The notes under the pieces were generated by a model. That model was not told where the DNA came from and made no database searches. It saw only the letters and a list, made by a program, of their open reading frames with translations. Shown here one piece after another: positions 1-38,148 of a stretch of DNA of 39,480 nucleotides. How positions within the stretch are numbered: the first letter of the stretch is position 1; every line of letters starts with the position of its first letter. Origin of the DNA: a virus. Its lineage: Duplodnaviria; Caudoviricetes. The stretch covers positions 1 through 39,480 of the IMG/VR virus record IMGVR_UViG_3300012890_000003. The stretch is one strand, 5' to 3'. The translations under genes and the position numbers were made by a program.

Positions 1-123
1 CAAGTACGCCAGCGCGGGCGGTATTCCCTGCTACGAAAATGCCCCCACCAACCGGGCGCTTAAGGAAATTGGGGCCGTGCTAGGCTGGCCGCTCGAAGTG
101 ACGCACCACGCAGCCCGGCGCAC
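1..123. repeat. Terminal overlap, left copy (circular assembly redundancy)
   Basis: Bases 1-123 are identical to 39358-39480, and the integrase reading frame runs continuously across the join. Confidence 0.97.
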
Positions 124-316
124 GTTCGGTATGTTCCTGCTCAATGAAGACCTGCCGCTCGAAACCGTGTCGGCGGTGCTCGGCCACAAGAATATGCGCA
201 CCACGCAGAAATATTACGCCCGCTTCATCGAGCGCCGCAAGATTGAGCGGGATTTTGCCGCGCTGCGCGCGCGGATGGAGGCACGGAACAAGCCGGATGA
301 GGAGCAGGCAGCCTAA
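1..316 (+). CDS. int: Tyrosine integrase, C-terminal part (continues from 38375)
   Basis: Frame from base 2 reads KYASAGGIPCYENAPTNRALKEIG...THHAARRTFG...VSAVLGHKNMRTTQKYYARF, giving the HxxR, LGH and catalytic Tyr motifs. Confidence 0.95.
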   Translation, partial: KYASAGGIPCYENAPTNRALKEIGAVLGWPLEVTHHAARRTFGMFLLNEDLPLETVSAVLGHKNMRTTQKYYARFIERRKIERDFAALRARMEARNKPDEEQAA

Positions 317-11449: not shown

Positions 11450-14071
11450 TTAGCCTGTGCGCTGCACCCGGTAGTCCTGCGCACGTCCGATGGCTACCAA
11501 ATCTGGCCCACGCAGCTTGAACTCGGCAATAACCTTCACCGTCTGCTGGCTGCCTGCCTGGCCCACATTGCTGGCGCGGGGGCTGTTGGGCGTGCTGCTG
11601 CTCGAACTACTGCCGATGCTGCTGGCGAAAGAGCTAGCCAGCCCAGCCGCTGCCACCAAGGCCACGCCGCCAGCAATTTGTGCAATGCCCAGTCCCTGCA
11701 TACCAGGTATGACGAGATTGGCCGCGCCCAGGGCAATCAACAACTCACCCTCCTGCTCAGCAAAGCTGGCCAGAGCCTTAATAATGCCCGCCCCGGCGGC
11801 GGCCAGCACGTCGCCCCCGTCGGCGAGCGCGCTGCCAATGCTTTGGCCAATGGAAGCAAAGGCCGCCGCTGGAAAGGCATCCGTCAACTCCTCGGTGCGG
11901 GTGTTAAAGTCGGCCATTGCCTGCGTAAACACCGGGTACTTCTGGTTTTGAATCGCGTGTAAACGGTCGTAGCCGGCGGCCAGGCCCTCGGCGCTCAAGT
12001 CCAGTCCCGTCAAATCCATCGGCACCACGTCGGGCAGCTTCAACGGCTCAGGTGTTTGGAGCTTGAAATCAGGCGTGACATTCATTTTTTCCAGCCCCTT
12101 CGCCACCCGCGTGCTCAGCATCTCATTGTCGCCGAGCGTTGTGTTGAGGTTGCGCAGGTCGGCCACCAGCCGTTGCACGGCCACCGAAGCTGGCGCAAAG
12201 CCCGCTGCAATTAGTTTTTTGATGCCCGACTCCGTGGCGCTTTGCCGGCTCTTGAGGTAGTCGTACTGGTCGCCTAGGGCTAGGCTTTCGTTGGCCACCG
12301 TACGAAGCGACTTCTGCACGTCGGCGTACGCCTTTTGCATCTCTTTCGAGGCAACACCAAGTTCGTTGAGCCGCTTAATCTGGGCTTCGAGGCTGGCAAT
12401 AAGCTGATTGCTAGCGGCGATATCGGCCTCAGTAGTAAGGTTGGGCTTCGCCTCCTTCGCCGCCTTCAACTCATCCTCCAGCTTTTTGAGCAGGCCGATT
12501 TGCTTAGCAGCCTCGCCCGCCTGCGCAGCCACCACATCAAGGCGCACACCATTGAGAAGCGCCAGGTTAGCCGCAAACTGCGCCCCCACAGCGTTGAACT
12601 CCTTGGCCTGCTGCGTGAGCACGTAGATGCCGCTGTCGGTAGGCGCCTTTTTGCTGAAGCCAAACAGGTTGGCAATGGGGTCGATAAGGCTATAAAATGC
12701 CTGTGCGGCGCCATCGGCGGCGCTCACGGTGTCGCCAGTCAGCAGGCCATTGATAGCCTTCACGCTGCCGGCTAGCACGTCGAGGGCGGCCGTAACCCCT
12801 ACGGCTAGCTCCCGAAACACGGTGCGAAACACCGTGGCCGCCGACACCATCTGGCCCAGGTTGCCGCCCACGTTGGCCCGGATAGTGCTGAATGCTTCGC
12901 CGATGGCGCTGGCCGCTGAGCGGGCGGCGCCGGCCAGGTCACTAAACAGCGTGCTGCCCTCGCCTGAGCTGAAGTAAGCCGCAATGGCGCTCCAATTATC
13001 GTAGATGAGGTAGGCAGCGGCGGCCACGGCAGCAGCAGCCGGGAGAATCGGCCCCAGGGCCGCCAGCGAGCTAACGCCTAGCACCTCAAATCCGGCCGTG
13101 AGGGCGGGTAGCGCAGCGCCCAGCGTGCCCACGGCCACCAGCACCGGCCCCACGGCGGCCGCGATGCCGCCCAGTGCGACAATGAGCGTCTGGGTGCCCG
13201 GCGTGAGGCTAGCGAATGCGTTGGCAGCCCGCTCCACAAAGCTGCTGAGGCCCGCCAGGATGCCTGGCAGGTTCAGGGCCTTGCTGATGCCGTCGCCGAA
13301 CTTGGCCAGCGCCAGCGTGCCCGTATCCACAAAGTTTTCCAGCCCGTTTTTCAGCCCGCCTGTCACCTGCGGCAGCTTGGCCAGCTCATCGGTGAGCACG
13401 GCGATAAAGTCGGTGCTGCTCTTCCCCTGCTTAGCCAGGCTGGCCGAAATGGTTTCGCTGTCCACCGTGCCGTAGAGGCGCTGAAGTGCGCCCGATACGG
13501 CCGGGGCCGCCTCGATGATGGGGCGCAGGTCCTGGGCCAGCACCTTGCCCTTGGCGCTGAGCTGGGCTAGCTGTACTGTTACGCGGTCGAACTCGTTCTT
13601 GCCGCCGCCCGTGGTGGCGATGGCATTGGCGAAGGCCTTGATGCTTTTGGCCGATTGCTCGGCCGAGATACCCACGGCCCGCAGGCGTACGTCGCCCTGC
13701 ACCGCACCCTCGAAGCCCAGGCCTGGCAGCTTGGCAATTTCTTGCAGCTGCTTCATCCGTTCAGCCGTGCTCTGGGCGGCGGCCTGCACCGCATTCAGCC
13801 CCGTTACGCCCTGCTTGCCCAACTCTTGCAGCGTGATGGCCTCCAAGCCCTTTTTCAGGCTCTCAATCTTACCACTAGCGGCTACGGCGGCCCCGCTGAA
13901 CAAGGCCAGCGGGGCCGTGACGTACTGCGTGAGGCTGGTGCCGATATCCTTCAGCCCCTCGCTGAACTGCACTAGGCCCTTCAGCTCACGGCGGGCCTGG
14001 GCCATCGCGGCGCGGAAACCCGAGATTTCGGCCCCTAAGACAACGGAAACGGAGGCTAATACATCGGCCAT
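11450..14071 (-). CDS. Tail tape measure protein
   Basis: 873 aa, Ala/Gly-rich; tape-measure motif QLAQLSAKGKVLAQDLRPI; follows the tail chaperones. Confidence 0.93.
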   Translation of the reverse strand: MADVLASVSVVLGAEISGFRAAMAQARRELKGLVQFSEGLKDIGTSLTQYVTAPLALFSGAAVAASGKIESLKKGLEAITLQELGKQGVTGLNAVQAAAQSTAERMKQLQEIAKLPGLGFEGAVQGDVRLRAVGISAEQSAKSIKAFANAIATTGGGKNEFDRVTVQLAQLSAKGKVLAQDLRPIIEAAPAVSGALQRLYGTVDSETISASLAKQGKSSTDFIAVLTDELAKLPQVTGGLKNGLENFVDTGTLALAKFGDGISKALNLPGILAGLSSFVERAANAFASLTPGTQTLIVALGGIAAAVGPVLVAVGTLGAALPALTAGFEVLGVSSLAALGPILPAAAAVAAAAYLIYDNWSAIAAYFSSGEGSTLFSDLAGAARSAASAIGEAFSTIRANVGGNLGQMVSAATVFRTVFRELAVGVTAALDVLAGSVKAINGLLTGDTVSAADGAAQAFYSLIDPIANLFGFSKKAPTDSGIYVLTQQAKEFNAVGAQFAANLALLNGVRLDVVAAQAGEAAKQIGLLKKLEDELKAAKEAKPNLTTEADIAASNQLIASLEAQIKRLNELGVASKEMQKAYADVQKSLRTVANESLALGDQYDYLKSRQSATESGIKKLIAAGFAPASVAVQRLVADLRNLNTTLGDNEMLSTRVAKGLEKMNVTPDFKLQTPEPLKLPDVVPMDLTGLDLSAEGLAAGYDRLHAIQNQKYPVFTQAMADFNTRTEELTDAFPAAAFASIGQSIGSALADGGDVLAAAGAGIIKALASFAEQEGELLIALGAANLVIPGMQGLGIAQIAGGVALVAAAGLASSFASSIGSSSSSSTPNSPRASNVGQAGSQQTVKVIAEFKLRGPDLVAIGRAQDYRVQRTG

Positions 14072-14077
14072 GGTAGC

Positions 14078-14443
14078 TTATTCTAAGCTTGCAATACGGG
14101 CAAATTCTTCTTCACTCATTACCTCAGCCAGGACGGGCGGGCCATCGCCGTATAGGGGCAGCCATTCTTCAGGCACCACGGACGGGGTATTCTCACCCCG
14201 GTTGATGTTCAGTAAAATGGCGCCCAGCAGGCGCGTGCGCCGCCAGGCGTCGGCGGTGCGGCGGTGGTAGCCCCGGCAGCGGCGGTCGAACTCTGAGAGT
14301 GACATCTCCCAGAACTCACCCGCTGGCAGGGCCAGCTCCCCGAACGCGAAGTCGAGGTGCTGGTCCCACTCCTCAGTGGAGCTTATGCGGCGGGGGCTGG
14401 CTGCGGCGCCACTTTCGCCAGCAGGGCCCCCATCAGAGGGCCC
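14078..14443 (-). CDS. Tail assembly chaperone, -1 frameshift extension (gpGT-like)
   Basis: The -1 frame is open from G_GGC_CCT (14443-14437) through ...EEWDQHLDFAFGELALPAGEFWEMSLSEFDRR. Confidence 0.72.
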   Translation of the reverse strand, partial: GPSDGGPAGESGAAASPRRISSTEEWDQHLDFAFGELALPAGEFWEMSLSEFDRRCRGYHRRTADAWRRTRLLGAILLNINRGENTPSVVPEEWLPLYGDGPPVLAEVMSEEEFARIASLE

Positions 14444-14760
14444 ACGCGCAGGGTTTCCTTCAGCGCATCGGCCAGGGCCTCGTTATTGGCCGGGTTCAGG
14501 CTATCAATCAGCTCGCCAGCATCATCCTGGGTGAAGGCTTCGCAGCCTGGCACGTAGCGCCGCACGGCGCAGCTTACTAAAGCGGTAGCGGCCTCGTTGA
14601 AATCGGTGCTGAGCAAGCTAGCAAATTCGCTCGTGCCCAGACCTGTGAGCTTGGTCACGTCGCGCATCACGTTCATGCCGAAGCGTAGCTTGTGGGGCTG
14701 GCCGTTGATGGGCATCGTTACTTCGCCGCGGGCAGCATTGGGGAGAGTGTTGATTTCCAT
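14383..14760 (-). CDS. Tail assembly chaperone (gpG-like)
   Basis: 125 aa between tail tube and tape measure genes; INGQPHKLRFGMN motif. Confidence 0.85.
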   Translation of the reverse strand: MEINTLPNAARGEVTMPINGQPHKLRFGMNVMRDVTKLTGLGTSEFASLLSTDFNEAATALVSCAVRRYVPGCEAFTQDDAGELIDSLNPANNEALADALKETLRVGPLMGALLAKVAPQPAPAA

Positions 14761-14792
14761 GATTAAGCAGAAAAAAGGAATGGGTTTCGCCC

Positions 14793-14823
14793 AAAAAGCC
14801 CGCCCGGAAGCCGGGCGGGTTTT
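14793..14823 (-). terminator. Intrinsic terminator after the tail tube gene
   Basis: GCCCGCCCGG-AAG-CCGGGCGGGT stem with an A5 tract on the plus strand (U-tract on minus). Confidence 0.75.
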
Positions 14824-14845
14824 CTGGACATGGATAGCTACTTTC

Positions 14846-15322
14846 TTAGCTGGTGAGGGTCTTGGTCAGCTCCCCGGTGCCTTGCAGGCTCACCGCGTAG
14901 GTGGCCAGGCCCTTCTGCTGGCCCTTGAAGTCGGACTTGGTGATGAAGCAGCTGCCCGAATAGCGCGCCCGGCCCGTGCCGGTGCCCAGCGTGAAGCTCA
15001 CCTTCATCATCGTCTGGTTAAGCTGCAAATCGACCATGTTCTCGGCCGTCACGTTGTCGGTGGCGTCGGTCTGGGGCGGGCTGGCGGCCGGGTCGTCGGT
15101 GGCCTGGCGCACGTTGAGGCTGGCGCTGATGGTCCAGTCGGTCTGGCCGGGCTCGTACTCCTTGAAGTTGCCGCTGGCCACGCAGGTGGCTTCGTCGCTT
15201 TCGGTGTTGATGCTCAGGCCCATGTCGGTCGAGCAGCCGACCACCACTTGGGTAGGCGTGTTGTTGATGGTTTTTTCGACCGCCAGCTTGACGTCACGGC
15301 CGCGGATATTGGTGAGTGCCAT
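14846..15322 (-). CDS. Major tail (tube) protein
   Basis: Likely start MALTNIRGRDV; GCSTDMGLSI...DWTIS...ATYAVSLQGTGEL is a siphoviral tube pattern. Confidence 0.9.
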   Translation of the reverse strand: MALTNIRGRDVKLAVEKTINNTPTQVVVGCSTDMGLSINTESDEATCVASGNFKEYEPGQTDWTISASLNVRQATDDPAASPPQTDATDNVTAENMVDLQLNQTMMKVSFTLGTGTGRARYSGSCFITKSDFKGQQKGLATYAVSLQGTGELTKTLTS

Positions 15323-18905: not shown

Positions 18906-19784
18906 TTAGTTAGAAAGCGCCAGCAGCTCAAGCCGGCGGCGTTGAATGGAGAGCGGAATGGGTGCGAGCTCAGGCGCGGTGCGCTTTGCGTCCAAGTCAG
19001 CTAGCCACTGCTTCATCTGGTCAATTTCGGCGCCCTGGTCGTCGATGATATCCTGCGCAAAGGCGCGGATATCTTCGTTTTCAACCTTTTCGAGCGCCGT
19101 TTTGGCCATCGTGAGCGCCATCTCATGGTGCGGAATCATCGCCTCCAAAAAGGTGCGAGTGGCCTTGTCAGCCGCCGAAACCTTGGCTTTTTTGCCACCT
19201 TTATCGCCCGCCTGCATGTCTTTCATGCGGAATTCTTCTAGGCTGCGTTTGGCCGCACTGGATTGCGCATAAGCTGGGTCGGTGACGGGGCACACATCGG
19301 CCACCTTGCTGATTTTGGTGACCGTGCGCACGTAGATGCTGCTGGTGTCGGTTTCCTCCTTATCCCAGCTGTCGCCATCGGGCCCCACCCGAAATGCGAA
19401 CGACGAGCCCACCACATCGCCACGCAGAATCTTGGCCATCACGCGCTGGTGGTCAGGGTCGGTGGCGTCATAGCTGATGCGGTAGCTCAGGCCCCCATCA
19501 GCATCGCGCGTCAGGGTCATCGTGCCCGAGGTAGTTCGGCCCAGCACGCAATTGCGGTCGTGGTTGAACAAGCCCACCACGTCGCTCAGGTCGGCGTTGT
19601 CGAGGGCCTTGGGGTCGATGATTTCCACAAAGCCACCGAGGTTCTTGCTGCGCGAATTGCACACAATGGCCTTGCCGGTAAAGGCAGCCGGCTCTTTGGC
19701 GTCGCCCTCCCCCCGGTATTCAATCGTAACGTGGGCGGCGGCATTTTTCAGGAAGCGGCGCTCCGTAGTGGCAGGCTTTTTCAT
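18906..19784 (-). CDS. HK97-family prohead protease fused to a DUF305-like domain
   Basis: LFNHD...LGRT...GSSFAF...VTDPAY is the protease; FLEAMIPHHEMAL...AQDIIDDQGAEIDQMKQWL is DUF305-like. Confidence 0.9.
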   Translation of the reverse strand: MKKPATTERRFLKNAAAHVTIEYRGEGDAKEPAAFTGKAIVCNSRSKNLGGFVEIIDPKALDNADLSDVVGLFNHDRNCVLGRTTSGTMTLTRDADGGLSYRISYDATDPDHQRVMAKILRGDVVGSSFAFRVGPDGDSWDKEETDTSSIYVRTVTKISKVADVCPVTDPAYAQSSAAKRSLEEFRMKDMQAGDKGGKKAKVSAADKATRTFLEAMIPHHEMALTMAKTALEKVENEDIRAFAQDIIDDQGAEIDQMKQWLADLDAKRTAPELAPIPLSIQRRRLELLALSN

Positions 19785-35905: not shown

Positions 35906-36871
35906 CTAATAAGGAGTGGAGAGGGTGGCCTGAATAGCTTGAAAAATCTGGAAGGCGACCTGCGGCACGATGGCGTTGCCGTAGGCTTTTAGCTGTTTAG
36001 CGCGGGGGCTGGCAGTTCGCACCAATCGGCTGGGAAGCCCATCATCTGGGCCACAAAGCGCGGGTTCAGTGAGCCCCCCAGCGTGGTATGCAGCATCGGG
36101 TGGGTGCGGGGCTTGGCCAGTTCCGAGGGTGCGGGCCGGTTGTGCTTGGCATCGTTGGCCTGCGGCGTCGGCAGCAGCGCACTGCCCGCTACTGGAGTGG
36201 GGAGCAGCAACGGGGCCATTATTGCCAAGCCAGGAGCATTCCTCTTGGCTTGGCAAGCACTTGGTATAGCATTCTTTGCATCGTTGCAGGTCGGCGTCGG
36301 CAGCAGGTGCACGGCCAGCGTCAGCGGCATCCCGCCCTGCGCATAAGGCTTGCTGCGGTTCCCGTTGGCCGCGTCCGTGGTGGGCGTGGGCCACAAACCA
36401 AAAGCGGTCGCGGCGGTGGATGGCATCGACACCGCAAGCTGGAAGTAGAAACGGCTGAACGTCGTAGCCTTCAGCTTCCAGCTCAGCACACACCTGCTCG
36501 AATGCCAGCCCCCCGTCGTTACTAAGCAGGCCGCGAACGTTTTCGCCCACGACGTAGCGCGGCTGAACCTCCCGAATGACGCGACGCATTTGCGGCCAGA
36601 GGGCCCGAGCATCGGCTGTGCCAAGCCCCTGCCCTGCGGAGCTGAAGGGCTGGCAGGGGAAGCCTCCGGAGAGCACATCAAGTCTTCCGCGAAAAGGGAG
36701 CCCGTCGAATGTGCAGACATCGGTAAAGAGTTGGGAGTGAGGAAAATTCTTGTGGAGCACCTGGCGGCAGAAGGGGTCTAGCTCGACCTCGAATACATTT
36801 TGCCAGCCCAGCCACTCGGCGGCCAGCGAGAAGCCGCCGATGCCGGAAAAGAGGCCTGCGTGGGTGAGCAT
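35906..36871 (-). CDS. C5-cytosine DNA methyltransferase, alpha chain (motifs I-VIII and X)
   Basis: LFSGIGG, GGFPCQPFS, ENV, HRRDRFW and YGNAIVPQVA motifs; no motif IX visible in this frame. Confidence 0.93.
   Translation of the reverse strand: MLTHAGLFSGIGGFSLAAEWLGWQNVFEVELDPFCRQVLHKNFPHSQLFTDVCTFDGLPFRGRLDVLSGGFPCQPFSSAGQGLGTADARALWPQMRRVIREVQPRYVVGENVRGLLSNDGGLAFEQVCAELEAEGYDVQPFLLPACGVDAIHRRDRFWFVAHAHHGRGQREPQQALCAGRDAADAGRAPAADADLQRCKECYTKCLPSQEECSWLGNNGPVAAPHSSSGQCAAADAAGQRCQAQPARTLGTGQAPHPPDAAYHAGGLTEPALCGPDDGLPSRLVRTASPRAKQLKAYGNAIVPQVAFQIFQAIQATLSTPY
35989..36720 (-). CDS. C5 methyltransferase beta chain in an alternative frame (PTP repeats plus motif IX)
   Basis: 243-aa ORF nested on the same strand; four (W/L)PTP repeats; LNPRFVAQMMGFPADW is motif-IX-like. 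Confidence 0.78.
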   Translation of the reverse strand: MSAHSTGSLFAEDLMCSPEASPASPSAPQGRGLAQPMLGPSGRKCVASFGRFSRATSWAKTFAACLVTTGGWHSSRCVLSWKLKATTFSRFYFQLAVSMPSTAATAFGLWPTPTTDAANGNRSKPYAQGGMPLTLAVHLLPTPTCNDAKNAIPSACQAKRNAPGLAIMAPLLLPTPVAGSALLPTPQANDAKHNRPAPSELAKPRTHPMLHTTLGGSLNPRFVAQMMGFPADWCELPAPALNS

Positions 36872-37026
36872 TAGCCGTTGTGCTCCTGCCACACGGCCCA
36901 CATCTGCGGGTAGCAGCGCTTCAGGTCTTTCTTAGCCTGTTTGATATCCTGCTCGCTCACGCGCTCGGGGTTGTTGAGGATGGCCAGCAGGCTGGCGGCA
37001 GTGGGGACGGTGGAGGTAGTGGCCAT
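36871..37026 (-). CDS. Hypothetical 51-aa early protein
   Basis: MATTSTVPTAASLLAILNNPERVSEQDIKQAKK...; TAATG coupling to the methyltransferase. Confidence 0.7.
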   Translation of the reverse strand: MATTSTVPTAASLLAILNNPERVSEQDIKQAKKDLKRCYPQMWAVWQEHNG

Positions 37027-37048: not shown

Positions 37049-37095
37049 TTGTAGTTGTGCAAATGTAGCATTACAAAAGCTACAAAGCGCACAAA
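37049..37095 (-). promoter_or_regulatory. Early promoter with operator-like TTGTAG/CTACAA half-sites
   Basis: TACATTTG -7 box on the minus strand (37067-37060), embedded in TTGTAG/TGTAG...CTACAA repeats. Confidence 0.62.
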
Positions 37096-37116
37096 GCAAA
37101 AGAAATTTTTTTAGCC

Positions 37117-37410
37117 TCAGCCTATCATCTCCATTCCCTGTAACTTTTCATTTAGCTCCAACAGGCGTTGCTGGCTGGCTTTTTCAGCCCTATCCAGGTC
37201 AGCCACCACGATTTTTAGAGCGGCCAATACTAATTCGTTTTCATTTCTGCCTGCCACGGCGCCGTGAATTTGCGCTTTGGTCAGTTCTGGAACTAGTTCT
37301 TTTACAGCCTTGCAATAAGGCCGGCCATTCAATTGTAGCCGTAAAGTGCTCATTTGCGCCACGTAAGTAGGCTGCGTGTGCTCAGTCGGTAAATTTTTAT
37401 TGCTGGCCAT
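37117..37410 (-). CDS. Cro-like regulator
   Basis: 97 aa, divergent from the repressor; ELTKAQIHGAVAGR is HTH-like. Confidence 0.65.
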   Translation of the reverse strand: MASNKNLPTEHTQPTYVAQMSTLRLQLNGRPYCKAVKELVPELTKAQIHGAVAGRNENELVLAALKIVVADLDRAEKASQQRLLELNEKLQGMEMIG

Positions 37411-37435
37411 ATTGCTGATAATTAAAAATCCTTTG

Positions 37436-37546
37436 CAACCTTTGTAGTGCGTTGTAGTTAAAATGAGCTACAAAGCCCTCTTGATGTGCAAACGATTAAT
37501 GATGCATCAAAGATACAAAAACCTACAATAGTTTCTAAGCCTACAA
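37436..37546. promoter_or_regulatory. Immunity switch region: operators and promoters
   Basis: TTGTAG-N10-CTACAA palindrome (37452-37473), extra half-sites at 37442, 37523 and 37541; TATCTTTG -7 box on the minus strand (37515-37508). Confidence 0.65.
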
Positions 37547-37566: not shown

Positions 37567-37989
37567 ATGGAAAAGACATTAGGTCAGCACCTTACTGCCT
37601 TGCGCGAATCCAAGGGGCTCACGCAGGAAGACCTGGCCGACAAGTCGGGCATCAGTCGGCCACAGATTTCCCGCCTGGAGAATAACGAGGTAGAGGCCCC
37701 GCGCCGCACCACGCTAGCCAAGCTGGCCCAGGCGCTGGGTGTGAGCGTGGACAGTATTCAGGTTGAGAGCCTGGCAAAGCGCCCTGCCACGGTAGCTGGC
37801 CGCTTCGCCAGTGCGCAGGACACGGTGGACGCTGCGGTCAATGCGGTGCTGAAGTCTGAAAATGAATTCCTCAAAGCCGAGAACGCACGGCTCTGGGAAA
37901 TGCTGGGAAAGTCCTCAAGTAGTTTAGGTGCAGCCTTAGCGGGCTTGTTCGGTGCTGGCCAGCAGGTCAGCACCCAACTCGCTGCCTAA
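37567..37989 (+). CDS. XRE-family HTH prophage repressor, 140 aa, no S24 peptidase domain
   Basis: LGQHLTALRESKGLTQEDLADKSGISRPQISRLENN; coiled coil LKSENEFLKAENARL; ends STQLAA. Confidence 0.92.
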   Translation: MEKTLGQHLTALRESKGLTQEDLADKSGISRPQISRLENNEVEAPRRTTLAKLAQALGVSVDSIQVESLAKRPATVAGRFASAQDTVDAAVNAVLKSENEFLKAENARLWEMLGKSSSSLGAALAGLFGAGQQVSTQLAA

Positions 37990-38007
37990 GCTGAGCTACT
38001 TTTTTTT
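37905..38007 (+). promoter_or_regulatory. Putative -1 programmed frameshift signal and terminator in the repressor 3' end
   Basis: In-frame G_GGA_AAG (37905-37911), a 6-nt spacer, a long hairpin at 37918-38000, then a T-tract; the -1 frame stops at TAG 37920-37922. Confidence 0.65.
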
Positions 38008-38093
38008 GCCCGTAGCATACACCTACCAGTACCTAAATCGGTAGACAACGGGTAAGCTGCTAATTGTAAGCACGTTAAGCGTCAGGTTATTGA

Positions 38094-38110
38094 CCCCAGC
38101 GGAGCCACAA
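38094..38110 (+). other. Probable attP core resembling a tRNA 3' end
   Basis: CCCCAGCGGAGCCACAA fits a T-stem 3' half (CCCAG), a 7-nt acceptor strand (CGGAGCC) and discriminator A; it lies upstream of int and is followed by a terminator. Confidence 0.6.
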
Positions 38111-38115
38111 TTAGC

Positions 38116-38148
38116 ACCCTCGCCCTACCAGGCGGGGGTATTTTTTTT
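38116..38148 (+). terminator. Intrinsic terminator after the attP core
   Basis: ACCCTCGCC-CTACCA-GGCGGGGGT followed by A and T8. Confidence 0.82.

Follow-up and report, generated by a model that had tools for sequence, protein, structure and literature searches.

A conserved -1 frameshift-type signal in repressor genes of Bacteroidota temperate phages, and a proposed role in removing a putative degron

The window analysed here is the complete circular genome of a temperate phage, 39.5 kb in length, whose ends share a 123-nt terminal repeat and join as a circle. Toward its right end lies an XRE-family repressor-like gene followed by an attachment site and a tyrosine integrase gene (Table 1). 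Pfam and PHROGs both assign the repressor an XRE/CI-type helix-turn-helix (HTH); its 0-frame stop is at 37987-37989 and its product ends in QLAA. The original prediction described a repressor without an SOS-cleavage domain, and the Pfam search agrees, as the HTH is the sole match and no S24 autopeptidase (self-cleavage) domain was found. By domain content the protein would not belong to the lambda-type, SOS-cleaved CI class. A structure model (mean pLDDT 70, pTM 0.43) shows the HTH, a disordered linker, a helix spanning residues 85-130 and a low-confidence end, and a homodimer prediction for residues 1-115 gave a score of 0.07.

Table 1. Features of the repressor-attachment-integrase region (coordinates refer to the window)
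Feature	Position	Strand	Basis
Operator-like repeats YTACAA/TTGTAR, nine around the divergent genes	37049..37546	.	Motif count; 28 in whole window
Divergent ORF, 97 aa, Cro position, without family match	37117..37410	-	ORF call, Pfam, PHROGs
XRE-family repressor-like gene, 140 aa in 0 frame	37567..37989	+	Pfam, PHROGs, translation, model
Repressor parts: HTH (residues ~5-62), disordered linker, long helix/coiled coil, 25-aa tail ending LAA			
Slippery heptamer G_GGA_AAG, in phase	37905..37911	+	Sequence; conserved in relatives
Spacer, 5 nt	37912..37916	+	Distance from slip motif to stem 1
Stem 1 (S1), 5' arm	37917..37927	+	Fold, covariation
-1 frame stop TAG (shifted product 118 aa)	37920..37922	+	Sequence
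Predicted pseudoknot stem 2 (S2), 5' strand GCAGC	37930..37934	+	Positional pairing rule; mostly unpaired in local fold
Variable structured insertion (inner hairpin), encodes tail and stop	37935..37990	+	Fold
C-terminal Ala-Ala codons, putative ssrA-like degron	37981..37986	+	Sequence, family statistics
Stem 1 (S1), 3' arm	37991..38001	+	Fold; kept in variant contigs with other inner sequence
U8 tract, possible partial terminator, unconserved	38000..38007	+	Sequence
Stem 3 (S3) hairpin domain, paired arms 38006-13/38048-55	38006..38055	+	Fold, relatives
Predicted pseudoknot S2, 3' strand GCTGC	38056..38060	+	Complementary to GCAGC 37930-34, right behind S3
attP core, tRNA 3'-end remnant, ~106 nt past repressor stop	38095..38108	+	Left- and right-junction contigs; same layout in G306
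Intrinsic terminator-like site between att and int	38116..38147	+	Terminator scan
Tyrosine integrase, across the 123-nt terminal repeat, ends EQAA	38375..39480 and 1-316	+	PHROGs, ORF

The surroundings of the gene are those of a phage immunity repressor, with a small divergent gene in the position of cro, operator-like repeats and adjoining att and int. On domain and context the gene is likely a phage repressor. A small divergent ORF also lies upstream of the repressor in 33 of the 39 element-bearing genes described below. None of the 29 such proteins scanned had a significant Pfam match; those of the window and 32 relatives are possibly an HTH family so far unrecognised. Elsewhere in the window, PHROGs labels a 257-aa ORF (965-1738, +) a transcriptional regulator, which we take to resemble a KilA-N-type antirepressor and which may offer another route of induction. 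The major tail and tape-measure genes flank overlapping tail-chaperone G/T-like ORFs (14071-14846, -), whose G stop shows no canonical slippery heptamer. Two long ORFs on the same strand overlap in different frames (35906-36901 and 35989-36720, -), one of them DNA cytosine methyltransferase-like, and a prohead protease-like ORF (18906-19784, -) has a C-terminal segment that we presume to be DUF305-like.

The codons ATG CTG GGA AAG TCC of the repressor gene set G_GGA_AAG in the X_XXY_YYZ phase, as originally predicted, and the translations confirm both proposed products, 140 aa in the 0 frame and 118 aa in the -1 frame, where K-V-L-K precedes TAG. GGGAAAG occurs twice in the whole window, both strands counted. 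We take G_GGA_AAG to be the slip site of lambda G/GT. At least 39 distinct repressor genes in Bacteroidota carry a slip motif, the basal stem S1 and an early -1 stop: that of the window, two from viral contigs, 28 from loci of one family and eight from elsewhere in the order. In all 39 the motif (Z_ZZN) sits after the coiled coil, and its phase is kept throughout. The expectation of a conserved GGGAAAG held for phase and in part for sequence, as G_GGA_AAG is found in 24 of the 39 and the others have different strong motifs, namely G_TCT_TTY (6), G_CCT_TTT (1), A_AAT_TTY (2), A_AAA_AAG (2), C_CGA_AAG (2) and C_CCA_AAR (2, one of them C_CCA_AAG). The A-site tetramers are A_AAG (29), T_TTT (7), T_TTC (2) and A_AAA (1), a class that accounts for 1.2% of background codons. 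Measurements in E. coli rank the tetramers A_AAG >> U_UUC > U_UUU and put C_CCA_AAG, G_GGA_AAG and A_AAA_AAG at the top of the heptamers (PMC4066793); CGA_AAG is used by IS1222, and a review names GGGAAAG as the slip site of HCTV-5 (PMC5009743). The family motifs thus appear to be almost always among the strongest E. coli shift motifs, although the family belongs to Bacteroidota, where efficiencies may differ from those measured in E. coli. An SD-like motif precedes the slip site in only 10 of the 39 genes. We rejected transcriptional slippage as an alternative because the runs of identical bases in the motifs are not longer than about six.

Homologs were collected by protein-profile searches that covered one genus (165 genomes), its family (274), the order (201) and Flavobacteriaceae (171). 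The matches listed were 150 of 588 and 150 of 564 in two of the profile searches, and 162 fetched XRE loci were examined. Members were chosen partly by eye and partly by a motif-plus-stem detector, which missed two members and fired in 12 of 52 non-members, two of these with a -1 stop within six codons. As controls we used 116 distinct XRE genes without the element; L200, a near-duplicate of L198, was dropped. The first 31 members share a median of 28% identity in the HTH region, the slip-motif types are scattered across the tree, and 19 homologous proteins with an invariant L-G-K after the coiled coil come from several HTH clades. By these comparisons the signal is conserved across a Bacteroidota order. 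In the 171 Flavobacteriaceae genomes the best 30 HTH loci were chromosomal-type genes without the element, under a query that favours such genes. Two single-protein scans returned, respectively, two irrelevant loci and only the window's own contig; a scan of genome contigs and one viral scan gave generic HTH genes, and tblastn against phage and plasmid sequences gave HTH-only matches. One DNA pattern search found no locus and another only the relatives G306 and G307, while a viral pattern search returned 15 matches, three of them repressors and 12 due to chance. G138 and its eight-genome genus proved a wrong lead for homologs. One homolog is labelled 'Janthinobacterium lividum' at NCBI and probably comes from a mislabelled bin.

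The question raised by the original prediction, whether homologs use synonymous Gly-Lys codons freely, was answered in the negative. Among the first 31 members Gly-Lys is written G_GGA_AAG in 18 of 18 unselected cases compared with 1 of 140 in the background, Lys-Lys is A_AAA_AAG in 2 of 2 (background 3 of 105) and Arg-Lys is C_CGA_AAG in 2 of 2 (background 1 of 112). Eight different codons precede GGA, and each of them ends in G. L243, in which the 0-frame stop falls at LGK, has unshifty codons. The in-phase motif is thereby conserved beyond what codon chance would give. The outcome in the -1 frame also appears selected. This frame is closed within 1-6 codons in all 39 genes, by TAA (19), TAG (15) or TGA (5), whereas the +1 frame is closed equally early in only 7 of the 39. 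Since nine later members were chosen with a near -1 stop as a criterion or by eye, the unbiased figure is that of the first 31 members, for which the stop was not a selection criterion: 31 of 31 have a -1 stop within six codons versus 24% of the background, in line with the early stop expected in homologs. The -1 product ends just past the coiled coil, as do many relatives without the element.

The second component of the signal is a structure 3' of the motif. The segment 37900-38020 folds with -52.1 kcal/mol (z -3.8), and 0 of 200 shuffles were as good. An ~83-nt hairpin six nucleotides downstream of the motif had been proposed, and the RNA does fold as described, but the spacer is 5-6 nt, the inner hairpin is unconserved and the likely stimulator is larger. 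What is conserved is the basal stem together with GCAGC, which is predicted to pair with GCTGC. S1 starts 5-7 nt after the slip motif across the family, within the 4-10 nt range, and closes an insertion of 49-175 nt that is unalignable between relatives. As MAFFT left these insertions unaligned, pairs were counted by script on the anchored arms. With both strands scored alike, 210 of 234 pairs in the S1 core are Watson-Crick, 21 are G-U, none is A-C and 3 are other, with 3-7 pair types per column; the covariation anticipated for the hairpin is thus found in its base. The excess of G-U (21) over A-C (0) points to pairing on the sense strand.

The remaining, predicted pairing follows a positional rule in which the S1 3' arm is directly followed by S3 and then by a strand complementary to sequence a few nucleotides past the S1 5' arm. 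Of 30 loci, 29 conform to the rule, compared with a shuffle mean of 8.2 (max 12) and 5-8 for slid windows. Among correctly placed, held-out loci from outside the family (L355 left out of the count), 5 of 7 pass versus 8 of 54 swapped partners, and 16 of 40 canonical windows on held-out regions also pass. The S2 sequences at these held-out loci are new (GCCT/AGGC, CAGG/CCTG, CGACA/TGTCG, ACCTG/CAGGT), and one subgroup uses GCCC/GGGC. S2 is short (4-6 bp), and its score hardly exceeds that of shuffles when position is disregarded (14.6 vs 13.7). Because S2 is near chance when unpositioned and the rule was written after seeing the data, we regard a pseudoknot with a second stem crossing the first as likely rather than established. 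The stimulator is likely a covarying stem plus a pseudoknot reaching 38060, ~70 nt past the stop. The window and 16 member loci gave no Rfam match at the gathering score. A stem order similar to that of HDV-like ribozymes, which are recognised by a P3/L3-sized loop and a conserved catalytic C, led us to consider such a ribozyme; the candidate was rejected as the element is without either.

A simpler reading, that the hairpin and U8 tract serve only as a terminator or mRNA-stabilising end next to an incidental slippery site, seems very improbable. The U-tract claimed to follow the hairpin is indeed present directly 3' of the stem in the window, but a tract of at least six U near the stop recurs in only 7 of the 39 genes and is missing from the other 32; the terminator scan skips the U8 hairpin and calls a canonical site at 38116-38139, 11 of the 39 have an S1 3' arm that finishes within the ORF, and this reading leaves the codon bias and the -1 stops unexplained. 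Four loci (L341, L342, L356, L357) have a U-tract within the insertion, between the repressor stop and the S1 3' arm. A transcript that ended at this point would lack the stimulator, a possible attenuator-like control.

The attachment site lies close by. Left- and right-junction contigs related to the window diverge from its sequence at ~38108, going over into a different terminator, and enter it at 38095 from a loose end that resembles a tRNA T-arm. A search of five genomes for the exact 14-nt core in a tRNA found none, its one match being due to chance and outside any tRNA. In G306, a relative whose integration site is tRNA-Ser(TGA), the whole repressor gene and its tail are retained at the right junction. 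About two thirds of the elements are followed by a tRNA- or tmRNA-like 3' remnant, as judged by eye, and the remaining ones abut the starts of host genes (e.g. GMP synthase-like, CTP synthase, IMPDH, LpxD, polyprenyl synthetase). At L185, L195, L209, L213, L215 and L226 the element stands directly upstream of host housekeeping genes, and what we take to be a TAnnTTTG-like promoter box follows 22-24 nt after the S2 3' strand. This arrangement suggests integration into promoters, not tRNAs, at such loci.

This proximity raises the question of whether the paired segments are DNA-level inverted sites of the att region (integrase arm, IHF) placed in the repressor 3' end, with no recoding. Several relatives have an S1 3' arm that forms one copy of a direct repeat and an S3 with short direct repeats, which may be integrase arm sites, and GCTGC of the S2 3' strand lies ~25-35 nt before the att core in an A/T-rich site (around 38056-38060) that we presume to be IHF-like. 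We nevertheless consider this explanation improbable. It does not account for the sense-strand bias of 21 G-U to 0 A-C pairs, for unrelated shift-prone motifs that interchange in one phase at a fixed distance, or for a -1 stop retained through all three stop codons, and S1 is unlike the local repeats in many loci. The att arm region does overlap these signals, and constraints on the DNA itself may contribute to their conservation. Taken together, the motif, codon bias, stops and stem indicate that the repressor gene very probably undergoes programmed -1 frameshifting.

The gene order rep-att-int also recalls mycobacteriophage BPs, in which integration cuts the tag off the repressor. Both Rep (QLAA) and Int (EQAA) carry ssrA-like ends by sequence, the Int of G306 and G307 ends in RLLAA, and Int may also be degron-tagged. 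Integration-dependent immunity is nonetheless hardly credible here. The att core lies outside the repressor ORF, ~106 nt past its stop, and the tail is intact in the G306 lysogen, so integration does not trim the repressor. In addition, the Int of a relative carries an Arm-DNA-bind_5 domain, a Pfam match that the Int of the window is without.

If trimming occurs, it would then concern the tail translated by unshifted ribosomes. This tail is 12-80 aa long across the 39 genes, falls into 31 clusters and contains more Pro + Gly (16%) than the helix before it (4%). The C-terminal LAA had been named an ssrA-type ClpXP degron, a claim that fits the statistics without being universal: tails end in AA in 16 of 39 genes compared with 0 of 116 other XRE genes and 8 of 134 other ORFs (Fisher p 5e-7, relatedness of genes not corrected for), and the last residue is Ala in 24 of 39 versus 3 of 116 controls, but 15 of the 39 end otherwise, some in LD or GE. 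The AA ends are written in 10 different codon pairs, which points to protein-level selection for an ssrA-like end, and are found in 13 of the 31 tail clusters; among 19 close protein homologs only 5 end in AA. We infer that the tail is probably a ClpXP-type degron.

It is also conceivable, though unlikely, that the frameshift is real and the tail mainly something else, either a regulatory extension (antirepressor or Cro contact, dominant-negative form, altered oligomer) or a by-product of mere repressor dosing. The 15 tails without terminal Ala, acidic-ended ones included, would agree with this, as would the first tail residues, conserved as x-x-[GS]-[SN]-x-x-A-A in the 19 close proteins and modelled as a continuation of the helix. 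This start is, however, explained by the RNA, as stem 1 and GCAGC constrain it, and the rest of the tail varies, with the bias restricted to the last two residues. P0014 and P0019-P0023 carry a near-identical tail on unrelated HTH clades, and the shift-plus-att module thus appears to move between repressors by recombination.

We therefore propose a model in which a frameshift gives a short, stable repressor and unshifted ribosomes add a degron, a two-form scheme that we hold to be somewhat better than evenly supported. In this model a slip motif, a 5-6 nt spacer, S1 and an early -1 stop, as present in the 39 genes, would be joined by a predicted three-stem pseudoknot (S1, S2, S3) that ends ~70 nt past the stop and stalls the ribosome on the motif. 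By analogy with E. coli data, the tRNAs would re-pair in the -1 frame and translation would terminate 1-6 codons on, just past the coiled coil. The unshifted tail, unconserved and often AA-ended, would act as a ClpXP-type degron. One mRNA would in this way yield a 118-aa stable and a 140-aa proteolysis-marked repressor, and their ratio would bias lysogeny versus lysis; that the frameshift ratio controls this decision is a prediction whose chances we regard as evenly balanced. More speculatively, as the pseudoknot would depend on RNA beyond the stop, would be opened by 0-frame ribosomes and shares sequence with the att arm, it could be modulated by transcript length, ribosome density and att-bound proteins. 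Truncation of the 3' end, traffic of ribosomes or occupation of the att arm by proteins might then lower the shift rate and drain the stable repressor.

Several known systems share parts of this scheme. The repressor of phage Mu reportedly has frameshift vir mutants and is subject to trans-targeting. Like the repressor described here, it is non-LexA-type and controlled by a C-terminal ClpX signal; unlike the present proposal, that signal is exposed conformationally, with no programmed recoding in the available part of the account (PMC10584840). The closest parallel in recoding is E. coli dnaX (tau/gamma), where ribosomes enter the -1 frame at an A_AAG-type heptamer followed by a 3' structure, meet a near-immediate stop and yield a C-terminally shortened product; the present case differs in that the gene is a phage regulator, the predicted pseudoknot is long and three-stemmed, the SD-like motif is infrequent, and the part lost is an unconserved degron-like tail instead of a domain (PMC5009743, as far as the available text goes). 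A -1 frameshift in a phage switch gene has been described for cro of Lactobacillus phage A2, whose product is 12 aa shorter and whose shift was seen in E. coli but called apparently irrelevant in L. casei, and proposed for lambda cI, where the shift would fall early in the gene, is untested and makes the short product the degraded one. For either case the available portion of that review mentions no conserved pseudoknot and no removal of a degron (PMC5009743). The stimulators of IS3-family elements (pseudoknot/ALIL) use the same Z_ZZN and heptamers with structure 4-10 nt downstream and long-range pairing, but their shifts give a longer fusion protein and their stem topology differs (PMC4066793, PMC5009743). 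Longer products are given by 146 of 146 GeneTack clusters, and the cluster tables of that paper include five prophage and four regulator clusters, mostly from E. coli genomes (PMC4066793). As truncating frameshifts leave no broken ORF, frame-transition screens miss them, and the family may be much larger.

BPs, Brujita and Charlie resemble the window in their compact cro-rep-int switch with tagged Rep and Int C-termini, and in them removal of the tag yields a stable repressor. Here, by contrast, rep does not contain att, the tail survives in the lysogen and an arm-binding domain is present in the Int of a relative, and the tag would be removed by degrees during translation, not by recombination (PMC3694055, PMC9635641, in the parts available). 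The element would thus be a dnaX-type truncating frameshift in a phage repressor, doing by recoding what BPs-type phages do by integration. The original prediction knew of no description of such a mechanism, and our search of the literature (mostly open papers) likewise found none; the available portions of PMC3711429, PMC10274946 and PMC8138137 add no repressor frameshift case.

Most of the frameshifts known from phages tune structural proteins, and the repressor-degron switches described so far work by recombination or cleavage. Tentatively, and with somewhat less confidence than in its parts, we suggest a new class of switch in Bacteroidota temperate phages, in which a three-stem pseudoknot built in part from att arm sequence sets the rate of a degron-removing slip, and translation state or att occupancy decides between lysogeny and lysis, with neither SOS cleavage nor integration-dependent trimming involved. 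The predicted pseudoknots would supply a new natural family with built-in compensatory variants. If the proposal is true, translation itself becomes an input to the lysis-lysogeny decision, and this could account for the control of Bacteroidota prophage repressors that have no self-cleavage domain.
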